Assembly (NCBI GenBank): GCA_050951325.1
Contig: JBMNIW010000008.1
Span: 256,001 to 320,000, forward strand
Length of the DNA stretch: 64,000 nucleotides
Source of the DNA: Clostridia bacterium
GTDB taxonomy: Bacteria; Bacillota; Clostridia; UBA1212; DUPL01
Reading direction: 5' to 3'
Within the stretch, counting starts at the first letter, position 1, and each line of letters opens with the position of its first letter. Below, piece by piece: positions 11,462-61,800 of the stretch. The position numbers and the translations under genes were made by a program. The notes below the pieces were generated by a model, which had not been told where the DNA came from, ran no database searches, and saw nothing but the letters and a program-made list of their open reading frames with translations.

Positions 11462-11474
11462 TTTCTGTTCCTCC

Positions 11475-12515: not shown

Positions 12516-12550
12516 TCCCCCCGTTTGCTCGGTTTTTATGTCTATAATTC

Positions 12551-15263: not shown

Positions 15264-15346
15264 TATTTAAGCTCTGATTTGATAACAATGTAAAGTACAA
15301 AATAGCGAGGAACCTTATTTCATTTGTACCCTATAGCATACTAACC

Positions 15347-15503: not shown

Positions 15504-15505
15504 CA

Positions 15506-37049: not shown

Positions 37050-37129
37050 TGTTAATTTGAATTAAACATTGAAAATTTTCTATTAATCATTATAATATAT
37101 TTATCAACAATAATTTGATGAGGTGTGAT

Positions 37130-39844
37130 ATGTGGAAAATACTTAAAATAATCATTTGCTTAGTCATTTGCCTTGGTATACTTGTACCCGCTCAGGGCGA
37201 GTCGGGATTTGAACCAAGGGACACTAAAGCATACGAATCCGTAGAGAATGTCTACAAAATGGATTTTTCCGTATCCGACTTGAAAGAATACACAAGCAAG
37301 GATGAATGGGCAATATCCTCAGCCTCCAGTGCCGTTATAGAGAATGGCAAGCTGACATGCAAGTCTGGAAGGTCATTTTCAATAAGGCCCGGGTTTACAA
37401 TTGGAGACGACTACGGCCTTGAGCCAGGATACTTTACCTTCGACCTGGTCATGACAGGAGGACAGATATCAATAGGCACTAGGCTCTTTTCAAACGTAAC
37501 AATTAAAGGAACACAGGGCCTTTGGTTTACACTGACGAAGGACAACCTTGTGGTAGAGGATCCATCAACTAAATTGAAGGAAACGATTAATCACGGTATG
37601 GATTTGTCAACGGAACAGAATGTCAGAGTTCTTGACAATCTTGACACTATTGAATTTAGAATCAACGACACTGTTATTTGTAGTGTAACAATTGAAAACG
37701 AAAAACTTATGCTCTTCGATGCCAACGGAAACGAACTTGCAGCCATGAAGAATGAAACCGTTCCACATGCCGGCTACTTGAGAATGGATGTGGACAAGCT
37801 ACAGGGCTCATTGGACAATGTTGAGTATGCAAACAGACAAATAACACAAAAGTATGTAGAACGCCACGGCAGAGATATCGATTACTCCACCTGGTTTGCA
37901 GTGGACGATCTGGGAAGAAAAACTCCCGATAATGAAGAAGCAGGAAACAGAAAAAATGAAAAATATGTAGGTCTCTTTTACTTCATCAACCACGTTCACT
38001 CAAGTGGCGGAGAGATCCGCGACCATACAAAAATATATCTTGAACAGGGCCTTGATGCACTGAAAGCTTTCTTGCCAAACTCACCTGGAGGACACTGGGC
38101 AGAACCATATTTCGGTTACTACCTTTCCACCGATGAATGGATTTACAGAAAGCACGCAGCCATGTTCCAGGCCGCAGGCATAGACTTCATTTTCCTTGAC
38201 ATGTCAAACGCCCAGACTTTCCCTGAAAGCGTGAAGGTTCTTTTCGATACCTGGCTTGACATAAGAAGAAAAGGTGGCCAGACACCACAGATTGTGCCCA
38301 TGTGCGGAGACATGCCCGCTACATTGGTAATTGACATGTATACAATCAAGGATACCATCTTCTCTATTCCTGAATACGAGGAACTTCTGTTCAAGTGGGA
38401 TGGAAAACCTCTCATTCTTGGAAACAACGATAATCCAGAAGGCGATCTCTGGACCGTATCAGGCACAACACCTCAGACAAGAGAACAGTTCTACGAAGTT
38501 ATTAATTCTAATTCAAAGATAAAACAATTCTATGAAAGCGGAGAATTTGCAGAGTGGTTATCCAAGTTTACCATAAGAAAATGCTGGGCTTGGCAGGCCT
38601 CAAGATACGAGGAAGACAAATCATTTGCAGGATACTGGGATTGGCTTGACTGGCATCCACAGGCACCCGGAAGGAACTTCGATGGAGTAATCGAACAGAT
38701 CTCCGTTACCATGGGAACCCATGCTCACACCAGCACTGGCAGAAGCTATGTGGGAGAAAAAGATTACGGCAACGGACTACAGGATTTTGACTTTTCACTG
38801 GAAACATCAAAGTATGGACTTTGTTTTGAACAGCAGTTCAAACATGCTCTTAAAGAGAATCCTAAAGTAATAATGATTACAGGATGGAACGAGTGGTATG
38901 CGGGCGTTCAGAAGACACAGAACAAGCAGCAGACCACAGGACACACCCTGACTCCTGGTTACTACCTGGTTGACCAATTCAACCCTGAATTCAGCCGTGA
39001 CGGCGAACCAATGAAACTACGTACTGGAGTTGGATTCGGAGACAACTACTACTACCAGATGGTAAACTATATAAGGCAGTTCAAGGGAATGGACAAAACT
39101 CCAGTTGCTTCCGGACAGAAGACAATTGACATATCAAAGGGTATTTCCGAGTGGGCGGATGTAGGACCTGAGTTTAGGGATCACCTAAACGATACCACCT
39201 TCAGAAGGCACCTTTCATGGGGTGGCGTGTACACCTACATCAACAACACAGGAAGAAACGATCTTGATTATGCAAAGGTTTCGCAGGATGCGGACAATTT
39301 ATACTTCCTGATAGCCACTGCACATGATCTTGTAACTGTCGATGAAGACAACTGGATGAACCTGTTTATAAACACAGACATAAATCATGAAACCGGTTGG
39401 GAAGGTTATGACTTTGTACTGAACAGAAGCCGTGATGGCAAGACTGTTTCAGTTGAAAAGTTTGTAGACAACGATTGGGACTTTGAAAAAGTTGGAGATG
39501 CAGAATACTTCATGGGCGACAACTTCATCGCAATCAAGGTATCAAAGAGCATACTGGGTATAACTGAAGAACTGGCATCCTTTGATTTCAAGTGGGCTGA
39601 CAACTCCACAAAAACCGGTGATGTAATGCAGTTCATGGATATGGGCGACGCAGCTCCCGACTCAAGATTCGCTTTTAGATATTTGGGTACTGCACCTGCC
39701 ACAAAGAAATCTTCACCAAACTTCTTTGCAAATATTTTTAACCCTGCAAACTGGACCGCAGTCCACCTGGTGGTATTCAGTGTGATTGCAGCAGCAATAA
39801 TTATAGTTGTAGCAGTTATACTGGCAAAGCCGAAGAAAAAGTAA
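37130..39844 (+). CDS. Secreted membrane-anchored GH99/GH71-like putative glycoside hydrolase with N-terminal LamG-like module
   Basis: YVGLFYF, W.EPYFGYY, AGIDFIFLD, ITGWNEW, SRDGEP; TM plus KKK tail; TTGAAA-16-TATAAT upstream. Confidence 0.65.
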   Translation: MWKILKIIICLVICLGILVPAQGESGFEPRDTKAYESVENVYKMDFSVSDLKEYTSKDEWAISSASSAVIENGKLTCKSGRSFSIRPGFTIGDDYGLEPGYFTFDLVMTGGQISIGTRLFSNVTIKGTQGLWFTLTKDNLVVEDPSTKLKETINHGMDLSTEQNVRVLDNLDTIEFRINDTVICSVTIENEKLMLFDANGNELAAMKNETVPHAGYLRMDVDKLQGSLDNVEYANRQITQKYVERHGRDIDYSTWFAVDDLGRKTPDNEEAGNRKNEKYVGLFYFINHVHSSGGEIRDHTKIYLEQGLDALKAFLPNSPGGHWAEPYFGYYLSTDEWIYRKHAAMFQAAGIDFIFLDMSNAQTFPESVKVLFDTWLDIRRKGGQTPQIVPMCGDMPATLVIDMYTIKDTIFSIPEYEELLFKWDGKPLILGNNDNPEGDLWTVSGTTPQTREQFYEVINSNSKIKQFYESGEFAEWLSKFTIRKCWAWQASRYEEDKSFAGYWDWLDWHPQAPGRNFDGVIEQISVTMGTHAHTSTGRSYVGEKDYGNGLQDFDFSLETSKYGLCFEQQFKHALKENPKVIMITGWNEWYAGVQKTQNKQQTTGHTLTPGYYLVDQFNPEFSRDGEPMKLRTGVGFGDNYYYQMVNYIRQFKGMDKTPVASGQKTIDISKGISEWADVGPEFRDHLNDTTFRRHLSWGGVYTYINNTGRNDLDYAKVSQDADNLYFLIATAHDLVTVDEDNWMNLFINTDINHETGWEGYDFVLNRSRDGKTVSVEKFVDNDWDFEKVGDAEYFMGDNFIAIKVSKSILGITEELASFDFKWADNSTKTGDVMQFMDMGDAAPDSRFAFRYLGTAPATKKSSPNFFANIFNPANWTAVHLVVFSVIAAAIIIVVAVILAKPKKK

Positions 39845-39909: not shown

Positions 39910-40806
39910 CTATGCAAAAGCTCTTATGCTGCTTGCCTTGGCGGATGTTCTCAGTTTCTTCATGGCCACACTTTCAATCTGCCTTACACGCTCTCTGGTT
40001 AGACCCAGGTCATAACCAATCTCCTCCAGCGTCTTTGGGGTTCTGCCGTTCAAACCAAATCTCTCTTGTATGATATATCCTTCCCTCTTGTCAAGTTTTT
40101 CAAGAACTTCCCTGACTGTATCACTAAGCAATATGTTCTTCGCTTCTTCATACACAGGATCTGGCGAATCGTCAGATGAGATGAAATCCATAAGCTCACT
40201 ATCTCCGTCTTCACCTATTGTGGTGTTGAGGGATGCAACATTCTTATCAAAGGTCTTGTACAACTTGTAATCCTTTTCAGAAAGTTTTACATGCTCTTTA
40301 AGTTCCTCGAAGGTTGGTTCCCTACCTTCCTGCTCCTTAAATGCTTCTATAGCCTTTGAAATTGCAATGAACTTTTCGCTCATGTGAACAGGAACTCTAA
40401 TGGTTCCTTCGTTGTCATATATATGTCTAACAATACTTTGTCTAATCCACCAGGTAGCATAAGTGCTGAAAGCATATCCTTTTTTATACTCGTATTTGTC
40501 AACAGCACGCATTAATCCTATGTTTCCTGCCTGAATCAAATCCATAATGGACTCTTCGACCTTGTACGTCTTCTTTATTATCTTGGCATATTTTACAACC
40601 AAACGAAGGTTGTGGACTACCAGCTTGTTGTATGCTTCCTTGTCCCCATCTCTTGTTCTCTTAAACAAATCTTCCACTTCTTTGGGTTCAAGCAATCTGT
40701 ACTTGCCAATTTCCCTAAGATATTGCTTAAGCGCACTGGTATCAACACGATCATCTTCCAAGTATTCCTGAGCTTCGTGGTCACTATATTCTAATCTTTC
40801 ACTCAT
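39910..40806 (-). CDS. RpoD/SigA-like sigma-70 factor lacking region 1.1
   Basis: YLREIG, NLRLVV, DLIQAGNIGL, FSTYATWWIRQ, TRERVRQIE; RBS AGGAGG before ATG 40806. Confidence 0.9.
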   Translation of the reverse strand: MSERLEYSDHEAQEYLEDDRVDTSALKQYLREIGKYRLLEPKEVEDLFKRTRDGDKEAYNKLVVHNLRLVVKYAKIIKKTYKVEESIMDLIQAGNIGLMRAVDKYEYKKGYAFSTYATWWIRQSIVRHIYDNEGTIRVPVHMSEKFIAISKAIEAFKEQEGREPTFEELKEHVKLSEKDYKLYKTFDKNVASLNTTIGEDGDSELMDFISSDDSPDPVYEEAKNILLSDTVREVLEKLDKREGYIIQERFGLNGRTPKTLEEIGYDLGLTRERVRQIESVAMKKLRTSAKASSIRAFA

Positions 40807-40954
40807 TTCGCCAACCTCCTTTAGAACATCAATTTGTCTATGCGTATAATTATATTTGGTGATATTAAATAATAAATAGTTTAAATATAAAGTAACACGC
40901 AACAAAAGTTAAACATTTCCTAAATTATCCTTTATGAACATGGTGACAAGCCAT

Positions 40955-43300
40955 TTAGATATATTCTTCTATAAACCTTGACCTATTCTCTGAATTAAAC
41001 AGAAACGCAACTTTAACACGTGCTCTGGATACTGCCTGATGCCACAAACGTCTTTCAGAGGCAAAGGCATACAATTCAGGCTTTATGCCGAATAAACTCT
41101 TTACGTTCTCCCCCATCATTCTGTCCGGGAATCCCATATTGTACCTTCTGGCGTTGATGATGATGACGACGTCCGCACTTTCATCAAGATCGTATACGGT
41201 TTTAACGGGAATATCTGAAAGATTCATTTTGGAAGCCAAAACAATATCCTCCTTAAATCTTCCCACTAAAATTACAGAATATTCATTTGGGAGTGAATTT
41301 ATATAATTTTGTAAAGTGTTTTTCATAATCTCAATCTCATTTTCATCAAAAAGGGACTTTGTATCTTCCTTCTTGCATTCGTAAGACAAGAGCGTCACAC
41401 AATCGCGAGGACTTGCCATTTCACACCTTGCATACTTCCTCACCTGCATGGTGTTGCGTTCAACAAACCTTGCATTCATGCTCCACAATCTCTGTCCCTG
41501 GGAAAATACCCTTGTAAACTTAATGGACTCGGAGTGTCCAAAGAATCTCGAAAACTCCGTGAAATATGAAAAGTCGTAAGCACAAATACCACTCTTGGTC
41601 TGCCAGTCATTACCCGCAACAATTATACTTACCTTATCCATTACAATGTGCCATACATTCCTGAGCAAGTTCAGCATGTGTCTGTTCGTGTTGTGAAAAT
41701 CGTCAACAATAATATGTGTATAACCAAGAGACCTTCTCTGCAGCCTGATGGTCTCGGATGCCATCTGTACAATACCAAATGCATCCGTATTGTCACCGAT
41801 ATAGTTTAAATATGTTTCGTATACTGGCATAAGCAATGAAAACACACTTTCATTTCTCTTGTACCATCTGGTCTTTGTTTTCATGCTTTCTCTGTTCAAG
41901 AAAATGATTTCTTGCCATGTTTCAGAGTTGTCTCTGGCCAGCTGCAACAGCTCGCCAAGCACTACTGAAATTTCACGGATTAAAAACGGATTTCTCTCAA
42001 GAATGATTTTTAAAAGAGCATTCGCACTCATGGGAGCAAACACAGCCAAATGCTTCATGAGCTTTGTCTGCAAGTGGTCAACCAGAGTGGATTCCATAAG
42101 CTCGTAAGTAAACACATCCACCATCACAGTGTGGTTCTTTTCATGAATTTCTCTTATACGCTGCATCCTCTTTTTATATATCTCTGTAGGTGTCTCTGAA
42201 ACCAGGGACGTACCCGTGTCAAATCTGGCCTCACCTGCGGCATTTATTTCAAACACCTCAATATATATATCAAAGTCTGGCAGATAGAAAACTGGCTTGT
42301 ATGAAGTTCCATCATAATCCAGTTCTCTAACGCAATAGTCTTGCATGTACCTGTACCTTATATTGTTTCTGTACAGGAAGTCAGCTACAGCAAGATGCTC
42401 GTAATTCTTCATTCTGGTTCCGTCCAGTGCAATAGGAGGATATTCCTCCAGAAACTGCAAATAATCCTCATAATCATCAAAATCAAAAACAACACTACCT
42501 GCCTGCCTGAAGTTTAGGTAATAGTCTACAAACCTGGACTTGTACTCCTCTTCCTCCAACAACTTTTTAATTGTGCTTTCTGCAAATTCTTCATAGTCCA
42601 CATCAACAACATCAGGCACCTCTTTTCCATGGTCGGCAAGCACCTGAGCACTGTAGTCGATATATGTTTTGGCAATGGGCGAAATTCCCTCTTTTTCAAG
42701 CATCCGATTTACTTTATCAGCATTCTTTCCGCTATTGGTCAAAAACAATATATTATCCTCAGGCACATTTTTACCCTTTACCAGATACTTCACTTTACCA
42801 ACACAGGTATGTGTAAGTCCCGATGTACCTGCACCAATTAGTCTGAGCCTTTTTTCATCCACTACAACAGCTGTTTTTTGTTCCTTGTTAAGAATCACAC
42901 CATTTATATTAAATATGCTTTGATCTACAGAACCAATCATCTTGTCAACAACAGGCTTGTTATGTCTTTTTCTATACTTTTCAATCAATTTGAACATTCT
43001 GATTATCATGTTCAGATCATCTCTGAACACCCTGAGAATGTATTTGAAATCCTTGGACTGCAGAATTATGGACACTCTGTCATGAAGCTCCTCATGCCTG
43101 TCCTGCCAATCGAGCATTTCATTCAAGGAGACATATCTGTTCTTGTCTTCAAAGAGTTTCTGGAAATCCTTATAAGCTTTCAATGTATCGCTTTTCAGTG
43201 TTTTGAGTTCCTTTTTGAAAGCTATTCTTTCTTGCTTCCTTACCTTAAAATTCTCAATCATTCTTTTCATAACATCCAACTCCAAACAAGTATTCTCCAT
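40955..43300 (-). CDS. Helicase IV (UvrD-family) homologue with degenerate motifs
   Basis: LNKEQKTAV, GAGTSGLT, IIVDDFHN, AGNDWQ, ERRLWHQAVSRAR. Confidence 0.75.
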   Translation of the reverse strand: MENTCLELDVMKRMIENFKVRKQERIAFKKELKTLKSDTLKAYKDFQKLFEDKNRYVSLNEMLDWQDRHEELHDRVSIILQSKDFKYILRVFRDDLNMIIRMFKLIEKYRKRHNKPVVDKMIGSVDQSIFNINGVILNKEQKTAVVVDEKRLRLIGAGTSGLTHTCVGKVKYLVKGKNVPEDNILFLTNSGKNADKVNRMLEKEGISPIAKTYIDYSAQVLADHGKEVPDVVDVDYEEFAESTIKKLLEEEEYKSRFVDYYLNFRQAGSVVFDFDDYEDYLQFLEEYPPIALDGTRMKNYEHLAVADFLYRNNIRYRYMQDYCVRELDYDGTSYKPVFYLPDFDIYIEVFEINAAGEARFDTGTSLVSETPTEIYKKRMQRIREIHEKNHTVMVDVFTYELMESTLVDHLQTKLMKHLAVFAPMSANALLKIILERNPFLIREISVVLGELLQLARDNSETWQEIIFLNRESMKTKTRWYKRNESVFSLLMPVYETYLNYIGDNTDAFGIVQMASETIRLQRRSLGYTHIIVDDFHNTNRHMLNLLRNVWHIVMDKVSIIVAGNDWQTKSGICAYDFSYFTEFSRFFGHSESIKFTRVFSQGQRLWSMNARFVERNTMQVRKYARCEMASPRDCVTLLSYECKKEDTKSLFDENEIEIMKNTLQNYINSLPNEYSVILVGRFKEDIVLASKMNLSDIPVKTVYDLDESADVVIIINARRYNMGFPDRMMGENVKSLFGIKPELYAFASERRLWHQAVSRARVKVAFLFNSENRSRFIEEYI

Positions 43301-43618
43301 TCAGCCCATCTGACTTTATCTTACCATATTATCAGTAAAGTTTCTATAAATAAATGGATGTGTATAGTATCTGGAATGCGATTGGTATATAAATATATGC
43401 AAGTATGGCAATTATGTGCTGCAAACAATACTACTATGACTTGAGTTTCCGTTTTTTCAGATTTTTAATCGAAAAAATCTAAGCAAAGTTTTTTGCCAGG
43501 CTCTATTGTTGAGCCGCCTTCGGTTTCGCTTTAAAACAAGCATGCAAAGTAAGCCTAGTTAGCTAGGCTTCTTAAAAAAATATATCTTCCTACTCTTCTA
43601 CTTCTACTTCTGCTGCTT

Positions 43619-43980
43619 CTATGTTATGGGCACCAACATCAGTTGCTGAAACCGAGGTCGCCGTTCAATCCTTTGCCACTCTTTAATACCTGTCCGTGCA
43701 TAGTCTAGTGTATTTTTAATGCCTTGAGCCATTTGGTAATAGTAAAACAAAATGTCCGTTCGCAATCCTCTTGCATTCTCTATCATTTTATTAGCTAAGT
43801 TGTTTTTCTTGTGCTTCTCCTGCATTAGACCAATAAAACCAATAGCATATGTAAGCATTTTATTTAGATTATTGATTGATTTCAAGCTTCGAACTCTAAA
43901 ATCCTCAAAATTGTATTGAGTCTTTTTAAATCTAAAGTATTCTTCAATACGCCATCTAGACATATATAACCTAAGTATAC
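43619..43980 (-). pseudogene. 3' half of the split IS4-like transposase
   Basis: ILRLYMSRWRIEEYFRFKK (YREK-type motif). Confidence 0.85.
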
Positions 43981-44587
43981 CTTTAACTCCCGTGTTATTA
44001 AAAATGGTATCGATACTGAAAATATATTTAAACCTATTAAGTTTGATTATTTAAAAGAAAAATATAATTTAAAGGATGAAAAGATTTTACTCCACGTAAC
44101 TGCGGATTTTGATGATAAAGTTAAAGGGAGTAAGTACTTTATTGAACTTGCAAATAGGCTTGAAAATGAGAATATAAAGATTTTATTAGTCGGCAAAAAT
44201 GTTTGTAAAGAAAATCTCCCTAAGAATGTAATTGCAGTAGGAGGTATATATGACCAAAAAGAACTTGCTGCATATTATTCCATGGCTGATTTGTTTGTAA
44301 TTACAAGTATTAGAGAGACGTACCCAACAGTTTGTATTGAAGCTATTTCATGTGGAACACCTGTAATTGGATTTGATACTGGAGGAGTAAAAGAGACTAT
44401 ACCAGAGGGTATGGGTAGAGCTGTAGAAGCCTATAGCGTAGACGAGCTTTATTATGCTGTTCTTGAGTTTATTGGTAAGAAAGACAGTGTTTGCAAGGAA
44501 GTTATTAATAAAGCAAGGCATCAGAATAGTAAGGCTAGAATGATTAATGATTATATAGATGTATATATAGAGTTATATGAAAAGTAG
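43981..44587 (+). pseudogene. 5'-truncated GT4 glycosyltransferase
   Basis: RVIKNGIDT, KGSKYF, ADLFVITSIRETYPTVCIEAISCGTPV; begins abruptly at the IS junction. Confidence 0.8.
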
Positions 44588-44614
44588 GACAATAATATAA
44601 AAGAGGTAAAGATA

Positions 44615-47068
44615 ATGAAAAGTATTAGAAAGTACATAAGTTTAATTCTTCTTATATTTGTTTTTTGTACCGTGGTAGATGTAAATAACTTACCTTATTT
44701 ACATGCAGAAGAAGTCGTAGTTAATTTATATGACTTAAATAACAGCGTAGAAACCTTTGATTTAGATCTAGAATCTACATATGCTATTTTATTTAATGCG
44801 GGTATACCAATAAAAGAAGTACAACTTTATATCGACAATGCACCTGTTAATCGAAGCAAACTAGAAATGGATTTATATAGCTTTGATACCAGCTACGGTA
44901 ATACGATCCGTAAGGAAGCTATTGTTTCTAAAACCTTTGAAAGGTTTGGCAGAGATACATGGCTTTCCTTTGAAATTGGAAATATAAATGCAGGAGAATA
45001 CTTGCTCGTTATAACTCCGAAACAAGGGAATATAAAGGTAAAAGTTAGCGAGGGCAAGCTTGATACAGTAAGAATGTACGAAAATACATCAAGTTTAAAT
45101 ATGAACTTTTTCTGCAGATTAGTACTTGAAAAAGGGGATGGTAATAGTTTGGAGAAAGTATCTGATTTTAAAAATAAATTTATTGCATTGCCAGATACTT
45201 GGGCATGCACCGATGGATTGAATAGAACTCTTCCTTTACAAAAAGATGTGGGTAAAAAAAGAGAAGATAAATATGTAGGGGTTTTCTTTCACACATGGCA
45301 TTCAAGATTTTCAGCACATAGCTTTGCGGACATATCCCAAATATTAAAACAAAATCCAAATGAGAAAAATTCCTCAAATATAAATTGGGGAGATAAGTTC
45401 TCATATTTTTGGAGCGAACCTATTTGGGGTTATTACGATACTAGAGATAAATGGGTACTAAGAAAGCAAGCTGAGATGCTAGCCGATGCAGGCGTTGATG
45501 TAATTATTATGGATAACACAAATGGAACTGATATATTTAAAGAAGGACTCCTTTCGCTACTGCAGGTTTTTTCAGAAGCAAGAGCAGATGGTGTAAAAAC
45601 ACCTCAAGTGTCCTTTATGTTACCTATGTTTGGTCCTTATGAAGATACAGCAAATCAACTAAGACAGCTTTATGATTTGATTTACTCAAAAGGAAGATAT
45701 GAGGATTTATGGTTTTACTGGAAGGGTAAACCTTTAATGATGGGTTGTCCTGATGCATTAAGAGAAAGCAATCCTATTGATAAAGCTATTTTAGACTTTT
45801 TTACTTTTAGGCCAGCTAATCCATCCTATAGGGAAGACTACGCCCAAATTTTTGATGAGCAGGGAAATGTACACGTATATATTCGTCCGCCGGAAGGTCA
45901 TATTACATGGCAATGGATAACTGTAATGCCTCAGCAGGTGGCCTATAATACAGATGGAACACCAGAACAAGTCTGTGTATCTGTAGCCCAGAACTGGAGT
46001 AATGAACAAGGCCTTGCCCCTATGAGCTTTAATGAACCTGAAAAGCTTTTTGGAAGATCCTATTCCCACTCCCAAAAAGGCCATGACAAGAGGGATAACG
46101 CCCCTTTGTATGGGAAGAACTTTGAAGAACAATGGGAATTTGCTCTGAAGGTGGACCCGGAGTTCATTTTCATAACTGGATGGAATGAATGGCGAGCTGG
46201 GCTAAATAATGAGATATGGGGAACTAAAAATGCCTTTGCTGATACCTTTGATGATAATAACAGTAGAGATATTGAACCGTCAAAAGGTGATTTAAAAGAT
46301 CACTACTATTATCAGATGGTATCTTACATACGTAAGTTTAAAGGAGCATCCGATGTGCCAAAAGCATCAAAACCTGTAACTATAGATATACATTCAAGTA
46401 CTGATCAATGGAAGGATATTAGTCCGTACTTTGCGTCTTATCAAGGTAACAATTTGGATAGGTACTATAGGGGCTATGGTGGTTTAAATTATAAACAGGA
46501 AGGCAATAAGAATGATATTGTTGGTGCAAAAGTTGCAAGAGACGATGAATTTATTTACTTTATGGTAGATACAAGGGAAGACATACATATAGGTGATAAC
46601 TTTATGCGGCTTTTAATTGATGTGGAAGATACAAAACATAAAGAAGCAGCTAACTGGGAGACTTTTGAGTATATTGTAAATAGGGTTGCACCAGGGGATA
46701 AAGCAATTGTGGAACGCTCGGTAGGAGGATGGAACTGGGAGAAGGTAGGAGAGGTTGATTATTCTATTAATGGTAATCGCCTTCAACTTAAAGTACCAAA
46801 GGCAATGCTAGGAATTGATAGAGATGAGTTCACAATCAACTTTAAATGGTCTGATAACATGAAAGATGAAGGTGACATAATGGATTTTTATGTTAATGGA
46901 AATGTTGCTCCCGGTGGTAGATTTAAGTATAGATATTCCACTGCTACTGAGGATGCAAATCCTGTTTCTACATTTGTTAAGTACATAGTTCCTGTTTTAG
47001 TATTTGTTATTGTAGCTTCTTTTGGTTTAGCTATATTATTTAAAAAGAATAGAAAGAGAAAAGGTTAA
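44615..47068 (+). CDS. Secreted membrane-anchored GH99/GH71-like protein, paralogue of 37130..39844
   Basis: YVGVFFH, FWSEPIWGYY, AGVDVIIMD, ITGWNEW, SRDIEP, FKWSDN. Confidence 0.65.
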   Translation: MKSIRKYISLILLIFVFCTVVDVNNLPYLHAEEVVVNLYDLNNSVETFDLDLESTYAILFNAGIPIKEVQLYIDNAPVNRSKLEMDLYSFDTSYGNTIRKEAIVSKTFERFGRDTWLSFEIGNINAGEYLLVITPKQGNIKVKVSEGKLDTVRMYENTSSLNMNFFCRLVLEKGDGNSLEKVSDFKNKFIALPDTWACTDGLNRTLPLQKDVGKKREDKYVGVFFHTWHSRFSAHSFADISQILKQNPNEKNSSNINWGDKFSYFWSEPIWGYYDTRDKWVLRKQAEMLADAGVDVIIMDNTNGTDIFKEGLLSLLQVFSEARADGVKTPQVSFMLPMFGPYEDTANQLRQLYDLIYSKGRYEDLWFYWKGKPLMMGCPDALRESNPIDKAILDFFTFRPANPSYREDYAQIFDEQGNVHVYIRPPEGHITWQWITVMPQQVAYNTDGTPEQVCVSVAQNWSNEQGLAPMSFNEPEKLFGRSYSHSQKGHDKRDNAPLYGKNFEEQWEFALKVDPEFIFITGWNEWRAGLNNEIWGTKNAFADTFDDNNSRDIEPSKGDLKDHYYYQMVSYIRKFKGASDVPKASKPVTIDIHSSTDQWKDISPYFASYQGNNLDRYYRGYGGLNYKQEGNKNDIVGAKVARDDEFIYFMVDTREDIHIGDNFMRLLIDVEDTKHKEAANWETFEYIVNRVAPGDKAIVERSVGGWNWEKVGEVDYSINGNRLQLKVPKAMLGIDRDEFTINFKWSDNMKDEGDIMDFYVNGNVAPGGRFKYRYSTATEDANPVSTFVKYIVPVLVFVIVASFGLAILFKKNRKRKG

Positions 47069-47339
47069 TTAAAAAGATATGTAAATAAGTTTAGGGTAAT
47101 ATTTAAAACTAACTGAATAATTAATAACAGTGTAGGTTGTGCCTTAGAGTGACACATTTCTCATAAAGTGGGATCTTGCAGCGTTATCATGAAGATCCTC
47201 GTAAAAACACTTTGCTTATAGTATTCTTGAGCCTTCTGAACTAAATGTCAATGAGGCCTATTTTCAATAAACCAGTGTTCTCTAATAGCGTTTTTTTGCA
47301 GGAACAATCGAGCAGTTAGGTGTTAACAGTAAAAAAAGG

Positions 47340-47378
47340 AAGAGTTATGCAACTTGTCATATTTGCATAACTCTTCTT
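47340..47378. terminator. Intrinsic terminator
   Basis: AAGAGTTATGCAA...TTGCATAACTCTT hairpin between convergent genes. Confidence 0.75.
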
Positions 47379-47394
47379 ACTAATTTAAATTCTT

Positions 47395-49623
47395 TTATTT
47401 AACTCTAAAAAGCTTACTCCCATTTCCTTCTACTGTTATTAACATATCATTATTCAGAATCTCCAACTCTTTTTTTGTCAAAAGATCCTCAACTGTATTA
47501 TTGTTTAAGTTATCAAAACTAAGATTACACGACACAATATTGTCAGAAACATTAAGCACAAGCAAATAGCAATTACCATCTATAGCTTCTACACCTAAAG
47601 TCCGGATCTTGTCATTGTCAGAGTAAACTACAAAGGGGTTTATTTTGCTTGTTGTTTTATAATCAATACTCGCCATTACAACAATACCAAAGTCAAATAC
47701 TTTTTCTTCTTTATCAAACCATTGTGGTTTTAAATCAAAAGAAGTACATAACTCATCACATAGCAAATATCCTCTTTCTTTATAAAAACTATGTCTTAAG
47801 CCAACTTTTCTATAATTTGGGTGATAGAGCTTTAAATCCTCTCCATATCCTAAAACTATCCCTAACTTATTGTCTACATTAACCCATCTGCCTACAGAAC
47901 TAAGACTTTCCTCTACTCCTTCATGTTCAAACTTTAAAACGCCATCTTTATAATAATATTCACGTTTAAAATCATTAAAAACATCATTAGGTATATTTAG
48001 ATGAAACCCTTTTACTGCATTCAAATGACAACGCCTAAGTGTATATGCATATTGCAGTGTCATAGTAGTATGTCCATCCGGTAAAGCAGCAAACGCAATT
48101 TTATTTGCTACATTAGTATTCCTATCATCTTGCTCTTCTAATAACTGACTTGTTATTGTATGGTAAACACCACTTGTTACAAATCCTCCATTAAAACTTT
48201 CATTATTAAACGAGACAATTTGATTGGTATTAACTAATCCTCCACCTTCAACTCTACTTGTCATGTTGTATTGCCATTCTGCAAGAGAACTATCGTTTGT
48301 TGGAAGACAATGCCCCTGTGGACCCTCTGCACTTCTCCAAACAAAAGAAGCATATCGATTTTCGTCTTTAACAAACTCTGCTCCATGGTACTCATCAGAC
48401 CACGCACTTAACTCCTTTTTGTATTCCTCATTAATGTCATAATCACTTGTACCATATCGCTTTTCTATTTCATTATACTCTCTTCTCCAATATGCACCTG
48501 ATGAAATAGTACAAGCTCTATCTGACTCAAGGCGTGTAAAATAAAGAGGAGATTTCTCTACTAGAAGCTCACAACGTTTTGATAAAAAAGTATTATCATC
48601 ATTGTAATCCATCTCCTTCTTAACAATTTCAAGCCATCTCTTTTCTAGTTCATCGCAATCTTCATTAAGACAGTCTTTCACTAATAGCAAAACAGGTACT
48701 AAGTAATCTTGACAATAGCAATATCTAACTCTAGTATCACCACCAATTCTAAACAACCTACCATCTTCATATATAAACGCTCTAACAAGTCTCCATAAAT
48801 ATTCCATATTATGATATAAAGAAGCAGGAGCCATTTGTCTATATTTGCGGTATGTAAAGTGCAACATCGCAATATTAGATAATGTTATAATCATATAGCC
48901 CACATTGAGATAACCATGATGATTAAGTGAATAACTCTCAAAAAAATTTGCACCCGAATGCCAATCTTTTAAAGGCTTCCCGAAATATATTTGATTGCTA
49001 TCTTTATCAGAAGGAATTGATATTGCATTTAGCAAGAAACGATTTCCCTTCTCCTTATACTTTTCTACATTAGGTGCATCAGGATACATAAGTGCTGCAC
49101 GAAGCAAAGTTGCACCATTCCACATATTGCTTTCAGGTTCATTAGGGTGAATCTCATTTGCATTAACCGGCTTATTTATTAACAGCCAATCAGCTTCTGA
49201 TAAAATAACCTTCCTAAGCAACTCTTTGTCATCATTCGTTAGATAATCAAAGATTGCTTCTACACCATGCATCATTCTCTCTATACCTAAAGCACTAATC
49301 CAAGTGTGCCCCCACTTAACATTCTCTCCATCAGTGCAATGATAACTACCTTCTTTATGAGATTCTAAGTTGTAGCGTAGTAGCATAATACTTATTTCAA
49401 GTAATTCTTCTTTTGATATTCCCATCCTACGAGAATCGGCATAGGGATCTGTAGCTAATACTGCAAGTGCAGAAAACCCTTTTTGATGAGTCTGCACACC
49501 CCAACCATTTGTTCCAGTCCCATAAAATTTAAGAGTAGATCTGTCTTTTACAGAATGTATATCATTAATAGCAGATTTTACCCATCTTTCAAGAACTCTT
49601 ATATAATCTTTGTGTGAAACCAT
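47395..49623 (-). CDS. Hypothetical 742-aa protein, possibly alpha/alpha-barrel plus beta-sandwich polysaccharide-lyase-like
   Basis: Long ORF with AGGAGG RBS; WGHTW, PESNMWNG, NHHGYLNVGY; helical N-half and beta-rich C-half. Confidence 0.55.
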   Translation of the reverse strand: MVSHKDYIRVLERWVKSAINDIHSVKDRSTLKFYGTGTNGWGVQTHQKGFSALAVLATDPYADSRRMGISKEELLEISIMLLRYNLESHKEGSYHCTDGENVKWGHTWISALGIERMMHGVEAIFDYLTNDDKELLRKVILSEADWLLINKPVNANEIHPNEPESNMWNGATLLRAALMYPDAPNVEKYKEKGNRFLLNAISIPSDKDSNQIYFGKPLKDWHSGANFFESYSLNHHGYLNVGYMIITLSNIAMLHFTYRKYRQMAPASLYHNMEYLWRLVRAFIYEDGRLFRIGGDTRVRYCYCQDYLVPVLLLVKDCLNEDCDELEKRWLEIVKKEMDYNDDNTFLSKRCELLVEKSPLYFTRLESDRACTISSGAYWRREYNEIEKRYGTSDYDINEEYKKELSAWSDEYHGAEFVKDENRYASFVWRSAEGPQGHCLPTNDSSLAEWQYNMTSRVEGGGLVNTNQIVSFNNESFNGGFVTSGVYHTITSQLLEEQDDRNTNVANKIAFAALPDGHTTMTLQYAYTLRRCHLNAVKGFHLNIPNDVFNDFKREYYYKDGVLKFEHEGVEESLSSVGRWVNVDNKLGIVLGYGEDLKLYHPNYRKVGLRHSFYKERGYLLCDELCTSFDLKPQWFDKEEKVFDFGIVVMASIDYKTTSKINPFVVYSDNDKIRTLGVEAIDGNCYLLVLNVSDNIVSCNLSFDNLNNNTVEDLLTKKELEILNNDMLITVEGNGSKLFRVK

Positions 49624-49849
49624 AAATAACTTCCTCCTAAATGACTACAATATCGCCTTTATTATACATCGTAAAACGTTATTAATATATGTATAATTCA
49701 CTAAAAAATATAAAGTTCTAATTATTCTAGATACCTAAGCTCTTTATTTGGGGTAGATATATTTGAAACTCCCATACTTAGAACGTTTCTTTCTGGAAAT
49801 TACGGTATAATTAATTGTTATGATTTTTTGATTTATGCCAGCTTGCATA

Positions 49850-49995
49850 TATACATTACATACTCTCTAATACGATGATATGGTACAGTTGGGGGTATGC
49901 CTCTTTCACACCAGCATGCAGAAGGTTCTGAGACTCGAGCAAAACTAGCGTCATCCATAAACATTAATCGAACAATTCCCTTATATGTGTTTTTT
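49850..49995 (-). pseudogene. IS630-family transposase remnant
   Basis: VRLMFMDDASFARVSEPSACWCERGIPPTVPYHRIREY resembles the IS630 DEAxFGR..CW..G.RP segment. Confidence 0.65.
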
Positions 49996-50488
49996 GGTAG
50001 CCTAGCTGCTGGAATAGTTGTGCCTATAAAAATCGGTAATGAAAATTTGTGAGAAATTAGATTACGATCCAAATACTTCATCTCCAATATGACTGAGACT
50101 AACTCTTGTTTTAATCGTAAATACATGGGTAGATCTATGTCATAAAAGCAGATTTTACATGAATAATACATTATCCTTACATCACTTATATAATCATGTG
50201 CAATAATATCAAAAGTACTCAGATAAAAGAGTGCTACTAAGATTACTTTTAGATCTACTAGGAAAACCCTCTATTGTATTCACCGGTAGATGTAACTGCC
50301 CATAGCACAGCAAAATATGCAAGTCTAAATTTTAGCTTAAATCTGTCATCAAGTTTACTTAATTCCCTACATAAATGGATTTATTTCCATTGTTTGATGA
50401 AAGATACATAGAATGGGAACAGGAATGATTCATTCGGATCCTTAATCATTTTGAATTAGCAATGCATTATATTATAGGAGTGAATTAA

Positions 50489-51409
50489 TTGGAATATATT
50501 ATTGAAGTGAAAAAACTAACAAAAAGCTTTTCAAAAAAGACCGTTGTCGATTGTATTTCTTTTTTTGTTGAAAAAGGAAGTCTATTTGCATTTCTTGGGC
50601 AAAATGGTGCAGGAAAAACAACCACTATCAACATGATTATAGGACTGCTTAGTCAAGAAGAAGGAGAGATTCTCTATCAAGGTAGTTCTGATTTTAAAAG
50701 ATTCAAAAATAAAATTGGCGTTGTATTCCAGAACAATATATTAGATGATTTTCTTTCAGTAGAAGAAAATTTACTCACCTATAGCGCATTGTATCACAAC
50801 ACAAAAAGTCTTGCTCAAGAGCATTACGCCCGTGTGATTAATTTATTATCTCTTGATGAGGTCTGCAAACAACAGTTTCGAACTTTATCCGGGGGACAAA
50901 AACGAAAAGCAGAAATTGCCAGAGCCCTTTTGACAGCACCGGAAATTCTATTCTTAGACGAACCTACTACCGGACTTGATCCTAAGACTCGAGCAGACGT
51001 GTGGGCTGTTATTGACAATCTGAAGAATGTTGATGGAATGACCATCTTCCTCACCACCCACTATATGGAGGAAACTGCCTTAGCAGACAAGGTCGCTATA
51101 ATAAACAAAGGTAAAATTGTTGTAACAGGAAGCCCTTTAGAACTGAAAACTGAATATTCATCCGATAAGCTAATAATTACACCCTATGATGCAAAAACAC
51201 TAGAGAGCTATTTGACAAAGAATGAACTTTCTTATCAAAGGAACAGTAGCACCTATACATTAGAAATTTCAAACGTATCTCACTCTATTGATCTTTTGCA
51301 CAGCATGAAAGAAAACATTCGATTTTATGAAGTTACTAAAGGATCCATGGACGACGTTTTTCTAAATGTCGTAGGAGAAAAACTTTACACAAACGGAGGA
51401 ATCTCATGA
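50489..51409 (+). CDS. ABC-2 type ATP-binding protein
   Basis: GQNGAGKT, LSGGQKR, LDEPTTGLD. Confidence 0.92.
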   Translation: MEYIIEVKKLTKSFSKKTVVDCISFFVEKGSLFAFLGQNGAGKTTTINMIIGLLSQEEGEILYQGSSDFKRFKNKIGVVFQNNILDDFLSVEENLLTYSALYHNTKSLAQEHYARVINLLSLDEVCKQQFRTLSGGQKRKAEIARALLTAPEILFLDEPTTGLDPKTRADVWAVIDNLKNVDGMTIFLTTHYMEETALADKVAIINKGKIVVTGSPLELKTEYSSDKLIITPYDAKTLESYLTKNELSYQRNSSTYTLEISNVSHSIDLLHSMKENIRFYEVTKGSMDDVFLNVVGEKLYTNGGIS

Positions 51410-52160
51410 ATACAATTTCTGCATTGATAAAACGAAACATACGCTTGTTTCTTCGCGACAAAGCGACAGTCTTTTTCTCTTTTCTAAGCACCCTTATACT
51501 GGTTGCTCTGTATTTGCTTTTTATTGCAGATATTTACACAGACTCAATGGATATTTTAGGAGCTGAAACCTCAGGGTTTTCACTTAACACCGGTGCTAAA
51601 GATTTCATTGTTTACCTGCAAATGATGGCAGGAGTTCTGGTACTTAATTCTATTTCTCTTGCAACGGGTGTTTTCTCTACCATAGCAAAAGATTTTGAAA
51701 GCCGTAGGATTGACAGCTTTTTGCTTACCCCTATCAAACCCTATAAGCTGATCTTCTCCTATTTCATTACAGGGCTTTATGTAAGTCTTACACTAAATGC
51801 AATTACATGGCTGATTAGTTCTGTTGTCATTGGCCTAACCACTGGATTTTGGATTTCTGTAGCAACCTTCTTAATGAGTCTAGTCGTTTTGTTTGTTGCA
51901 TCTATCATATCATGTTCGTTCATGCTTTTAGTAACCACACTAGCAAAATCTTCAGTGGCGATAGGCGTAATTAACGGTTTTTTAGGTACATTTATTGGCT
52001 TTCTTTGTGGTATTTATATGCCCTATAGTAACCTGGGAGAGAGTACAAAAAGGATAGGTTCTCTCTTGCCCTTTTCCCATATCACAATCTGGTTAAAGCG
52101 CGTGGTACTAGGTGATGCATTTTCACAAACCGGCATTCCAGAGGAATATACAGACATCTT
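51406..52160 (+). pseudogene. ABC-2 permease, 3'-truncated at the IS junction
   Basis: RNIRLFLRDKATVFFS..GFLCGIYMP; the frame runs into IS sequence at about 52160. Confidence 0.75.
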
Positions 52161-53058
52161 AGTATACGTATTGCATCATCTTTTCCTCTAATTGCTTTAT
52201 TTGTTGCTAACATCATAGGGGTATCTGATAAACCATATACTAGGATAAGACTAATATTTCTTTTGCTAGCAGTTATTTTAACATTAAGATGGCTTATGTA
52301 ACAATCACGGATCTCTTTATCAAAATAACAGTTGGTCTTAATCTTTCCCTTTCTTGAATCCCTTAAAACGGTGGATTTAAACCATTTGCCTTTGTGAAAT
52401 AACTTTCTTTTCTCCGTGAGCCTAATGACATAATCTTGATTATTTTTATGCATGTAATTAAACATAGCATTCATATCATATCCTCGATCGAAAATAAATG
52501 TACCTTTACCCTTTATTGTTTCAATAACTTTATCTAATCCTTCAAAAGTAATTGTGTTTGCTGACTTATAGTCCTCTTCTTTAGATGAATGTATATGAGA
52601 AAATAAACTCGATGGATTCTTTTTCTCCTTAGTTAAAGCTACTATCTCTGTAACCATATAGCCTTTTACTGTTTTTTTCTCTTTGCTAGAACCATCAATT
52701 ACTTTATCGAGACACTCGAATTTATAACCATGAGGCTTAATAACATCACTATCATCCACCATAATAACAGGGTTTTCTCCAATGGCTTCATTTACTAATT
52801 TACAATATTCTCTGTCTATAGATGGATCTAAGTCTTTTTCTAAATTTATACTTAGTCTTTCAATAGTATTTTTCTTTTGTATTGGTTCCATTATGCATCT
52901 GATATACTGCTTAATTTAACATCTTTCTTCTTAATAATTCCATACACCATATCTGAAACAAACTTACAACTGACTTGTCCTGACTTTTTAGTTAGTTTAC
53001 TTGTGAAGTTAAAAATACTTCTCTTGATTTGATATGTATCTGTGGTAGAATAGTACAT
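52158..53058 (-). pseudogene. 5' half of the split IS4-like transposase, with a 1-nt frameshift near 52890
   Basis: MYYSTTDTYQIKR..SSISDA / MEPIQKK..VDDSDVIKP..FDRGYD..MMLATN..DDAIRILR. Confidence 0.85.
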
Positions 53059-53258
53059 GTGGAAACCCCTTTTCATTTTGTTTAGTATGCTTTTTATCGC
53101 ATTAAAATTATACCAAATAAACGAGAGGGTTTCCACTTTTTTATGCTCTTTTTACTAATATTTCGACTGTTTTTAGTGCTTTTTTGCAAATCTGTGGATA
53201 ACTTTTGTTTTTATCTAGAAAACCATTTAAAAAAACGGAAACTCAAGTACTATGAACC

Positions 53259-53286
53259 TTGACAACAAATTTTAGACGGATATAAT
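53259..53286 (+). promoter_or_regulatory. Consensus sigmaA promoter for trmB
   Basis: TTGACA-16-TATAAT. Confidence 0.75.
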
Positions 53287-53325
53287 CTCACATGAGCAAT
53301 AATTAATAACGGAGAAGATTTGCAA

Positions 53326-53952
53326 ATGAGGATGAGAACGAAGAAAAACCTAATACCAAGACTTGAAAGAGTATCCCACTTAATATGTAGCAAACCAGAA
53401 GAAAGGAAAGGAAAATGGGCCAGTGGCAGACCACTGCACTTGGAAATCGGGTGTGGCAAAGGCGATTTCATATCGGAGCTTGCCGAAAGAAACCCTGACA
53501 TTCAGTATGTTGCACTGGAGGTTGTAAAAGAAGCCGCTGTCATGGCACTTGAGAAAGTTGATGAAAAGAAACTTGCCAATGTCATCTTCATACTGGAAGA
53601 TGCCAAGAATATATCCGAATATTTTGACAAAGGCGAGGTAGACAGAATCTATCTCAATTTCAGCGACCCATGGCCAAAGAAGAAAAAATCAAAAAGAAGA
53701 CTCACCCATCCTGATTTTCTTAAAGTGTACAAGGAAATACTGAATGAAGATGGTGAGATTCATCAAAAAACCGACAATTTAGACTTTTTTGAGTTTTCAC
53801 TGGAATCATACAAGGAAATGGACTATACCCTGTATGAAACAACATATGATTTGCATTCCACTGATTTTCGTGGCAATATTATGACAGAATACGAAAAGAG
53901 GTTTGTGGCAGAGGGTAAACCCATCTGCAGAGTTGTTGCAAAACTGAAATAA
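53326..53952 (+). CDS. trmB: tRNA (guanine-N7)-methyltransferase
   Basis: LEIGCGKG, LNFSDPWPK, KTDN, MTEYEKRF. Confidence 0.96.
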   Translation: MRMRTKKNLIPRLERVSHLICSKPEERKGKWASGRPLHLEIGCGKGDFISELAERNPDIQYVALEVVKEAAVMALEKVDEKKLANVIFILEDAKNISEYFDKGEVDRIYLNFSDPWPKKKKSKRRLTHPDFLKVYKEILNEDGEIHQKTDNLDFFEFSLESYKEMDYTLYETTYDLHSTDFRGNIMTEYEKRFVAEGKPICRVVAKLK

Positions 53953-53973
53953 GTATAGTTAAGGAGGCGAAAT

Positions 53974-54318
53974 ATGGACACAAAGGATAGAATTGATGCA
54001 AATAGAAAAAGGCTGCTTGTTACCGCCTCCATTCTTTTTTTAGTTACAGTAATATCCATTGCTGTCATGTTTGTATCTAAAAAGTTTCGAACATTTGACG
54101 GCTGGGACAAGTATCCAACCAAAACTCTTGAAACACCGGATAAAAGAGATTACCCGGGAAATATATCTACAGAACTTCAGGAAAAACTAAGATATCTTCC
54201 AGATGATGCAATAGTCAGGGTAATTGTCAGCAACTTTCCTCTTCCGCTTGAAATGTCAAAAGCGGATATATTGGAAATGGCAAACGCACAACCTGATTTG
54301 ACTTTCGATAATGAATAA
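53974..54318 (+). CDS. Hypothetical protein with one N-terminal TM helix
   Basis: RBS AAGGAGG; hydrophobic stretch. Confidence 0.65.
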   Translation: MDTKDRIDANRKRLLVTASILFLVTVISIAVMFVSKKFRTFDGWDKYPTKTLETPDKRDYPGNISTELQEKLRYLPDDAIVRVIVSNFPLPLEMSKADILEMANAQPDLTFDNE

Positions 54319-58828: not shown

Positions 58829-61800
58829 TCAGCTCTTTTCCATCAGTTTTCTGGCATGTTCCATAAATTCCTTAAATCGCTCCTCATTGCGCACACTATC
58901 GAACCACTCCCAGCCGCGGGTTACAGTCATGCTATAATACATAAAACCACTGTTATCCTGGAAACACCAATCATACTGCAATAGCTCCGTTGTTCCATCA
59001 GGCAGCTCAATTATACCACTGCCCTTGATGACCTTGACTCCACCAAATATTAGTTTGCTGCCTACTTCAAGTGGTGTGCCATCAGGTATCTCAGTCCATT
59101 TCGCGTATAGTTCTAAGGCGCGTTCAAGATAATTGTATCCTTCATCTCTTTGACCACAACCAAACAAAGCACAAGCAGCTCTAAAGCAGCAGCTTGCATA
59201 CAACCCAAGCCAGGCACGGGGTACACCTTTTCCTTCTCCCAAAAATTCACACATGCCCATACTATACTTGAACCATGCAACAGCACGCTCCGCATTACCA
59301 CGATTGCGTTTTGGCCGTTCCAACATATGAAGAACAAGCTGTAGTTTATTTACAGATTCGCGCAAACGGCTTTCTTCATATTTTCCCTGACGCCACAGAT
59401 CCTCCTCAATCACTTCTCCATATATTGAGCTGTACTGAGTCACAATTTCAGGTTTCTTCCTTATACCACAACGATCTTCGAATATAACGATGTTTCCATC
59501 CTCATCCACCACATATGTGTACTCCGCACTGCCTATATAGCCATCAGTAAGGTTTTGCGCTTCATATTTACGCATCATACCGTCACCAACAGGCATAAAG
59601 CCTTTTCCCACACCTTCATAAGCTGTAAGCTCATAAACTGTCTTTGCAAGTTCTTTGCCGGGATGATAGTTTACAGTACGTATAATTCCTACTCCCGGAG
59701 CAAAATAGTATTCTTTCCTGCCTCCTCGATATGTAAGACCTGTGTCAAACCCTTTTATATCAAGCGATAACTTGATGCAGTCATTGAAGGTGCCGGCTTT
59801 GGTAGCAATTTCTCCTGCTTTTTCAGAAACAATTGTTGTTTTAATATAATAACTGTTCCATAGCAAGAATTCCTCCACATATTCCCCTTCTTCTACCCAT
59901 TCATCACACCAGATGCAGTTCGTGCCATTTTGCAAAATATCGTAAATGTCATTAAAAAGGAGTGCTTCTTCAGAAACATTACCCCACCTGACATTCTTCC
60001 ATTCAAAAGACCACCGATAATTATCCATATACTCCAGCCTGCTGCCTTTCCCAAGAGCATACCCTTTCCTAAAAAAGTTCCAATGCCCAGTATGCATATA
60101 ATCAGGATTGAAGGAAGGATCTGTTGCAAGAATCCTCTCCACAACAGAGCATGCAGCCTTTGTATGGGCCCTTTGCATTGGTGTTTGAGCAAGTATTCTT
60201 GCCCTTTCCACGGCATGGGATACGTCATGCAATGTATATTTGCCATCCTTGTAGCTGCAGTATTCATTGCGTATATGTTGAATCATGTCAATCCAGGAAT
60301 TATCATCATAACCAAGTCTCTCAATCTCACAGTTCTGTGTAAGCAAAACTTTTTTGTCGTCAGCATGACTCATAACGAACCTGGAAGAATGAAGAATAAA
60401 CTTTGGGTTGTTGTCTGAAACATATTCCCAGGAGTTGCCTGTATGGCTTGGCAAGATTCCTTTTCCTCCTACTATGTCATACGACTTTAGAAGTCTTGTT
60501 TCTTTGACACCATCACATTGCCTTACGTGTTTGACAATACCCACATCCTGTTTGTAGTATGTGTAATATGTAGCTTCTTTGTGCTTGGTAATCCAAAGCT
60601 GGCAGCTTTCGAATGTACCACAAGGAGTTTCAACCTCTGCCGAATCCTCTGCATACGCAAGAGTCGTACCGTCGGAGCCTGTGTAGGTATCACCTACTCT
60701 CAGACCTTCAATGATAAAATTGCCATCGCAGAGGGATGCGTTTCTAAAGATAAAATCAATCTCAAGATCAAAAGAGATAAGGTGTCCATTCGAATACCAC
60801 TCCTGGTTCCAGCGGCACAGCTTTCCATTTATTAACCGGTATTCCTCAGCTGCACATCTTAATCTGTATTTGTCCTCATCCTTATCAGCGTACTCCTTCA
60901 AATGTTTCCTTTCCATCTTCGTTGCTGCAATTGCATATGCATAATACAAGTCGGAGGGTTTTATGATTGACAGCACTTTTTCAAACGCTTCAAAACCTTT
61001 CTCAGTCTCTTTATTCTCAAAGTATGCTTTCCCAAGCCAGAACCACTCATGTGCAAGGCTTTTCACAAATCCCAGTTTCTCAAGTCTGGGAATCTGCTTG
61101 TCACGAATAAATTCATGTCTTACCCCGTAGGATACTTTTAAATCCTCCCTGCTGACCACAAACTGCATAACTTCATCGTTCCTGCCTTTTTCAGCGGCTT
61201 CCACAATCCTGGCAAACAAAGCGTCGTTCTTGTCACCGGGAAGCCACCACCATCCACGCATCAAGACATCCGCCAATGCATGATACTTGTCAATAGATTC
61301 AGGAAGTTCTTCCACATCTTTTAGTACATCATTGTATACAACCTCAAATCCGTCTTTACTATTCATAAGTTGCCATAGTTTCATTTCCTCAACCTTTTTC
61401 ATAACCTTCTTAACAAAAGTGTCCCTGATTTCCTCATTCATGGAGCTCAATCCTTTCCTTATTCTTTTTCTGCCATCATGGAGCTGCCACTTTACTGTCC
61501 CTGGGGAAATTCTCATTCTGTCTGCAATCTCCGCAACAGACAAGTCCTTCAAAGTAGTGAAGATAAATAATATCCCTTACTTTTTCAGGCAGCTTGCTGA
61601 TGCCATTATGAAGTTTTTCCTTCTCTTCGGATTTTGCATAAAGATAATGAGGATCCTCATAATATTCATCTTTTAGATTGAAACCATCGACTTCCTCCAG
61701 ACTGAGGAAACTGCGGTACCTTGTAACCATGTTTTTTGCACAATTCTTTGCAATGCGGCAAACCCACGCCCTAAACTTGGCAGGCTCCCGCAATACATTT

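Follow-up and report, generated by a model that had tools for sequence, protein, structure and literature searches.

Introduction

In ISEcp1-type one-ended units, a true end of the insertion sequence (IS) and a look-alike of its inverted repeat (IR) delimit the moved segment, and ISEcp1 itself, which belongs to the IS1380 family and makes 5-bp target duplications, remains attached to the unit. In derivatives of Tn6330 (ISApl1-mcr-1-ISApl1), a target duplication brackets the passenger, one end of which has a pseudo-IR, and a joint of 1–4 bp marks the position of the missing IS; use of a pseudo-end has been weighed against decay of a composite transposon, of which decay is favoured in PMC5821093. 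In IS231-MIC231 of the IS4 family, extra genes lie between the IRs of one element, where the additional DNA separates the left IR from an intact transposase gene (PMC2266710). Promoter targeting has been described for TnGBS, ISLre2 and ISKra4, which have Mutator-like transposases and lie with the right IR 15–17 bp from a −35 box (PMC3942029). Here we describe an IS4-family element whose transposase gene is interrupted by 8,180 bp of foreign DNA in a 64,000-nucleotide stretch of a Clostridia bacterium genome (contig JBMNIW010000008.1, positions 256,001 to 320,000; hereafter the window).

The unit inserted into this element resembles ISEcp1-type units in being delimited by an IR look-alike, but it keeps no true end. 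It shares the above traits with the Tn6330 derivatives and raises the same pair of rival explanations; however, ISApl1 is a copy-out element of the IS30 family with 2-bp duplications (PMC5821093), whereas here the element is of IS4 type (YREK motif), the duplication measures 7 bp and it was a copy of the IS itself that received the insert. As in transporter ISs and MICs, passenger genes lie between the IRs of one element, but unlike in IS231-MIC231 the transposase gene is split, the insert has its own duplication, and genes are cut at both of its ends. Unlike in TnGBS, ISLre2 and ISKra4, the transposase has the IS4 signature and the targeted promoter is on the side of the IR at the transposase 5′ end (IRL), 10–14 bp from the IS end and exactly 3 bp past a duplication of 7–11 bp. 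The nested insertion is real and well preserved; it was seen at one locus and varies on a known kind of gene capture by ISs. It represents a readable snapshot of passenger DNA entering a single IS with the footprints of capture still visible, and lends itself to testing which of the two holds, use of a pseudo-end or decay of a composite.

An IS4-family element opened within its transposase gene

The outer limits of the element lie at 43440 and 53247, where the IRs are identical over their first 18 bp and, as an earlier note on this DNA had stated, are bordered by the same 8-mer, TACTATGA (43432–43439 and 53248–53255), which occurs just twice more within the window. The insert of 8,180 bp sits in the transposase gene, in agreement with the note's description of a single IS opened inside its transposase. 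When the parts of the IS were joined in silico by removing the insert and one copy of a 7-mer, the resulting element was 1,621 bp long, inside the range of its relatives (1,562–1,649 bp, one mis-called copy excluded). The cargo is bordered by one IS in two halves and no long repeat was found in the region around the element, so that the note was also right in rejecting a classical composite transposon.

The halves of the transposase belong to one IS isoform. Compared with their closest relative among the matches listed, an intact transposase of 417 aa with 25 members (P0241), the 5′ half is identical at 227 of 242 residues (93.8%) and the 3′ half at 109 of 119 (91.6%), and the two join at residue 299. 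They are collinear with intact relatives with an overlap of two codons, and the corresponding regions are contiguous in 76 of 77 loci from GTDB genomes, the remaining locus ending at a contig end (these loci came from 80 of the 229 relatives of one GTDB scan, are at most 64% identical, and include neither the source genome nor the cargo). The idea that the halves rejoin without loss therefore stands as regards collinearity, but the last R of DDAIRILR, which had been taken as the end of the 5′ half, is encoded by cargo DNA. Since the insert separates two catalytic aspartates (D102 and D191) from the YREK motif (303–317), the element is unable to move itself. The N-terminal 55 residues of the 5′ half are further separated from the remainder by a frameshift near 52893, possibly an assembly indel, because an ECF sigma factor gene near 61550 has a similar one. 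No cut transposase of 269 aa was present among the 120 matches listed of 2,672, and a 50%-cluster search with the 3′ half gave nothing further.

The relatives allowed the element to be classified. The IS4 family has been defined by D(60–110)D(100–150)E spacing, the Y(2)R(3)E(6)K signature, a single ORF and duplications of 7–13 bp (De Palmenaer 2008, PMC2266710). Of 111 full-length homologues, 101 have spacings of 88 and 118–122 residues (the pattern did not resolve the remaining 10), the Y(2)R(3)E(6)K signature was found in 111/111 as well as in the 3′ half in the window, most homologues are single ORFs of 416–422 aa (the copy in the window being itself broken), and the duplications are about one helix turn long (7–11 bp at 24 sites). 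The clade is outside the IS4 models of NCBIfam, of which the best gave 58–69 bits for three of three intact relatives, below all cut-offs (152–160). By size and ends the nearest IS4 subgroup is ISPepr1 (1500–1600 bp, duplications of 7–8 bp, ends YT-AA-YTT---A), compared to 1562–1649 bp, 7–11 bp and ends agreeing at 6 of 8 fixed positions here. The IS701 family, with 4-bp duplications and mostly without the Y of YREK, was rejected on the basis of the 7–11-bp duplications and YREK in 111/111 homologues, and a Mutator-type transposase (p-MULT 3/4) was rejected as only models of IS4/IS701 type matched.

A target duplication at the inner junctions

Both ends of the cargo interrupt a gene, a GT4 glycosyltransferase gene on the left and an ABC-2 permease gene on the right, and both are bordered by AGTATAC, a repeat that the earlier note had not noticed. 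For full-length relatives of the glycosyltransferase the alignment starts with residue 203, at base 43982; at this breakpoint two close relatives have KD where the window frame has YT. Relatives of the permease align up to residue 252 at base 52161; the codon after Leu252 can start with G in only 1 of the 119 homologues listed, and none has Val there. AGTATAC is thus native to neither cargo gene and is a duplication of the target, which argues against a recombinase crossover core or ligation at a restriction site, and the insert is probably itself a product of transposition. An arrangement with both ends cryptic and a 5-bp duplication was considered and rejected, since it needs G after the Leu252 codon (1/119) and 5 bp is outside the range of the family.

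The earlier note had named a scaffolding artefact as a possible refutation, and for the right junction this does not apply. A 261-aa permease (P0001), which represents 3 sequences on 5 Logan contigs, ends in the same IS-derived tail of 10 residues as the ORF in the window, with one residue different, and the right junction therefore exists beyond this assembly. These contigs may share their sample of origin with the window or stem from related samples.

The probable enzyme of the inner insertion

Three signs suggest that the insert was placed by the IS4-family element's own kind, namely the length of the duplication, the IR-like left end and the register of the target. Regarding the first, the target duplications of the relatives were 7, 8, 9, 10 and 11 bp long at 3, 6, 10, 2 and 3 sites, respectively (24 sites; two tandem copies of locus L066 were dropped from the count, and 13 further copies had no duplication). 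Regarding the second, the insert begins exactly at the best match to IRL in the cargo, with 16 of 22 positions identical, a score reached at 1 of 16,316 positions in the cargo and 6 of 127,956 in the window. With a profile built from the ends of relatives only, this left end ranked 71–220 of about 128,000 (top 0.06–0.17% of the window) and the adjoining registers 9% or worse, and the ends of another IS4-like element in the window matched it at no more than 9 of 22 positions. Regarding the third, a TTG starting 3 bp past the duplication, found in 18 of 23 relatives against a background of 2.3%, is also present at the inner site, which weakly fits the target register of the family.

Insertion next to sigma-A promoters

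The outer element lies beside a perfect promoter (Table 1), and its relatives show the same arrangement. Outward from IRL, a −35/−10 pair (at least 4/6 for each hexamer) was found in 17 of 23 relatives with a duplication (L007–L075; L001 was dropped for its short flank), compared to 3/23 on the opposite flank and a window background of 1%. All 17 promoters start exactly 3 bp past the far edge of the duplication, and their distance from the IS end varies from 10 to 14 bp. The 23 sites come from 17 genomes, and counting one site per genome gives 12/17. Two of the three positives on the control flank, L007 and L013, look like reversed insertions. On this distribution alone, guidance of the clade to sigma-A promoters is likely. 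Fixed-distance insertion upstream of such promoters also characterises p-MULT 3/4, at a different distance.

In a literature search for which most subscription papers were outside reach, promoter targeting by an IS4-family element was not found, and the only cases were Mutator-like transposases; the word "promoter" is absent from the main text of PMC2266710. If true, promoter targeting arose in a second transposase superfamily, which may outweigh the nested insertion in importance.

Two loci of relatives are worth recording here. At L066 (4420–9190), three tandem IS copies with the same 7-bp duplication between them lie beside a promoter-like site, either because one site was used repeatedly or through an effect of assembly. 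At L076 (4864–5285), a MITE-like, 420-bp internal-deletion derivative carries both family IRs, and no duplication was seen.

Proposed course of events and its alternatives

We propose, with a probability of about 0.5, that the inserted unit had a cryptic end on one side and a true IS end on the other, that a sibling transposase put it in place, and that the IS at the right end was then lost in a manner comparable to the decay of Tn6330. As the anatomy of the outer element shows, a 1.6-kb IS4-family element first entered 3 bp upstream of the trmB promoter with an 8-bp duplication. A transposase from an intact sibling would subsequently have put foreign low-GC DNA into this transposase gene; the resulting duplication of 7 bp or longer is observed, the agent is the conjectural part, and one end would have been the IR look-alike within the GT4 gene. 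The second end may have been a true IS copy situated within the permease gene or past it, whose later deletion at a 1-nt joint brought the duplication up against the cut permease. This would have left a dead transposase, its DD parted from its E, and two intact IRs enclosing 8.2 kb of captured genes. Of the two options in the earlier note, a landing site for foreign DNA is thus the better one, except that the DNA was probably inserted by a transposase (7-bp duplication, IR-like left end) and did not arrive passively. Loss of a flanking IS at joints of 1–4 bp is documented for Tn6330 (PMC5821093). In a literature search, no sibling transposase was found to hold cargo bordered by a duplication of its own.

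Several points weigh against the proposal. At the right end of the insert no IR was found in the register of the 7-mer (profile rank 37–57% at 52160), so that the second end, like its loss, is an inference. As a target the inner site is poor (−35 of 3/6, no −10, intragenic), and with both strands and two registers allowed for, the probability of a chance match of its register is about 0.1. Since the tests of ends and target were selected after the sequence had been inspected, we weighed them below their nominal values. Units with a cryptic end were found in 0 of the 13 relatives without duplication. The left junction is known from this window alone, protein comparison does not decide if the GT4 gene itself supplied base 43981, and the 55-residue N-terminal piece of the transposase is just 76% identical to P0241. 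YREK transposases act by cut-and-paste. The decay of Tn6330 concerns a copy-out IS30 element (PMC5821093), and excision of IS4 is low and IEE-independent (bioRxiv 2023.06.07.543989), which counts against simply carrying over the Tn6330 model.

According to the other option in the earlier note, the 9.8-kb unit was a non-autonomous cargo transposon that had formed at another site and was brought here in trans. This reading bears on which event came first, and can be combined with other mechanisms considered here. It is conceivable because both IRs are intact, but we consider it doubtful. The perfect 8-bp duplication, the promoter site, the low GC content of both cargo and IS, and the short IR-bounded derivative at L076 agree with it. 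However, a plain IS inserting first accounts equally well for the outer duplication and the promoter site, so that mobilisation in trans gained no positive evidence, and the unit that was to be looked for at other loci had no second copy in the 77 GTDB loci (the source genome being outside this set) and no match among plasmids or phages. In addition, IS4-family transposases such as those of Tn5 and Tn10 prefer to act in cis.

A fully decayed composite, in which two IS copies of this or another family with 6–7-bp duplications brought the cargo and were both deleted at short joints, would reduce the IR likeness on the left to a deletion joint or chance; it seems unlikely here. Among the states of mcr-1, a duplication with neither IS left is the most frequent (180 of 273 without IS), and pseudo-IR ends have been reinterpreted as deletion products (both PMC5821093); several other IS types are also present in the window. 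This course nevertheless requires two clean losses, neither end retains a remnant of an IS, and a 1-in-16,316 match to the IR is not easily ascribed to chance. Furthermore, a promoter-targeting copy beside the GT4 break predicts TTG 11–15 bp into the cargo, where none is present.

Quite unlikely, in our estimation, is a capture in which the cryptic end alone was strand-transferred and the second staggered cut was end-joined to free incoming DNA, with no IS ever present on the right. It would explain why the IR-like end is on the side of the cut that is fixed 3 bp from the −35 (17/23 at this offset) and the IR-less end at the variable cut, and 9 of 10 bases at the right junction match the left copy and its flank, as expected of microhomology. 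On the other hand, DDE transposases normally require two synapsed ends, and the 77 GTDB loci contain no parallel case. A broader version, in our view decidedly improbable as a whole, combines two proposals. In the first, sigma-A promoters came independently to guide integration in this IS4-family clade, one cut lying at a fixed 3 bp from the −35 and the other being free. In the second, the same transposase captures DNA lacking IS ends through one IR look-alike strand-transferred into a sibling IS and end-joining of the other side, and the IR-bounded cargo units thus formed can be carried by siblings to new promoters.

Integration of a circle or fragment by site-specific recombination (integrase or IS110 bridge recombinase) or restriction-type ligation at GTATAC is hardly credible: although the shared 7-mer includes this palindrome and an IS110 fragment lies at 12832–13314, this would require both cargo genes to carry a crossover core or half-sites of their own, with which the homologues disagree, and an uncut GTATAC remains at 44802 inside the cargo. 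An assembly artefact through a repeated IS, to which the single source of the left junction, the possible common origin of the Logan contigs and two 1-nt indels suggestive of residual assembly errors would lend themselves, is most improbable given the tail shared with P0001, a junction repeat of just 7 bp, the absence of N from the window, and the exact fit of the halves and the outer duplication. Our preferred reading remains insertion by a sibling transposase followed by loss of the right-end IS.

Cargo genes

The cargo is foreign-looking, with a GC content of 34.4% compared to 41% in the flanks, and two of its five genes are truncated (Table 1). The glycosyltransferase named in the earlier note was confirmed as GT4 by Pfam (E = 4.5e-14), with about 202 N-terminal residues gone. 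The 817-aa gene is likewise present, but its GH99 label is weak (E = 0.001, 18.7 bits for a cut-off of 33); the protein is 31% identical over 639 aa to that of a host gene at 37115–39844, and its hydrophobic ends suggest, from sequence, export and membrane anchoring. The 742-aa protein, noted before as an unknown, has no match in Pfam, NCBIfam or PDB; its family is confidently modelled (Atlas score 0.99, TM 0.85–0.93), and the nearest named Atlas clusters, DUF2264 and ulvan lyase, are to be taken as leads only. The IS630 relic had weak support (E = 2e-3 to 8e-3, two of six plasmid matches annotated as IS630, no match in Pfam or NCBIfam). The ABC-2 pair was confirmed; its permease lacks about 46–51 C-terminal residues, the homologues among the matches listed (119 besides P0001) being mostly 293–304 aa long. 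The functions of the cargo are poorly defined and probably related to polysaccharides.

As the earlier note had it, no recombinase was found among the cargo proteins scanned. The missing parts of the GT4 and permease genes are absent from the rest of the window, neither the cargo (against plasmids and phages) nor two intergenic stretches (against plasmids) gave a match, and Rfam gave none over 43000–54000. A promoter scan of the 9.8-kb unit yielded 44 sites, where 46 were expected.

Table 1. Features of the interrupted element, its cargo and its target, in window coordinates
Feature	Position	Strand	Remark
Outer target duplication, left copy (TACTATGA)	43432..43439		
IRR, terminal IR on transposase 3′ side	43440..43457		18 bp same as IRL; terminal motif recurs in relatives
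Transposase 3′ half, residues 299–417, with YREK motif and catalytic E	43619..43980	−	91.6% to P0241; motif positions
Inner target duplication, left copy (AGTATAC)	43974..43980		Not native to GT4 gene
Left end of insert, cryptic and IR-like, within GT4 coding sequence	43981..44002	+	16/22 to IRL
GT4 glycosyltransferase, C-terminal half, cut at residue 203 of ~403	43982..44587	+	82%/76% to full-length P0121/P0122
Putative glycoside hydrolase, 817 aa, weakly GH99-like	44615..47068	+	
742-aa protein, unnamed family	47395..49623	−	
IS630-like transposase relic, short	49833..50030	−	Weak
ABC ATPase, DrrA-like below family cut-off	50489..51409	+	
ABC-2 permease cut after Leu252	51406..52161	+	ORF continues into IS DNA, stop at 52191
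Transposase 5′ part, residues 1–300, with two catalytic D	52161..53058	−	Frameshift near 52893
Inner target duplication, right copy (AGTATAC)	52161..52167		Base 52161 also last native permease base (1-nt joint)
TTG-starting −35-like hexamer (3/6), no −10	52171..52176	+	Exactly 3 bp past inner duplication
IRL, terminal IR on transposase 5′ side	53230..53247		
Outer target duplication, right copy (TACTATGA)	53248..53255		
Perfect sigma-A promoter (TTGACA-16-TATAAT) of trmB-like gene, IS target	53259..53286	+	3 bp past outer duplication; 12/12, best site in region

Surroundings of the element

Positions 1–17100 of the window are low in GC (34.5%, equal to the cargo), rich in ISs and contain glycoside hydrolase genes, and end at the 3′ side of the tmRNA gene (17350–17732), so that this region is probably an island at ssrA. 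It includes two 95% identical copies of another IS4-like element (4104–5611 and 15506–17015) in direct repeat, 11.4 kb apart, and, at 12832–15300, the IS110 fragment adjoining an intact IS1634 transposase gene, with a 39-bp repeat at 12551 and 15264. A second gene of the sigma-70 group (331 aa) follows immediately after a UvrD-like helicase gene and adjoins the IS (39910–43300). At 58829–61997, an ECF sigma factor is fused to a TPR-containing region of 900 aa and interrupted by the 1-nt indel near 61550 mentioned above. Another DDE transposase gene, whose product is about 26% identical to this IS family, lies at 63109–64000 and is cut by the edge of the window.

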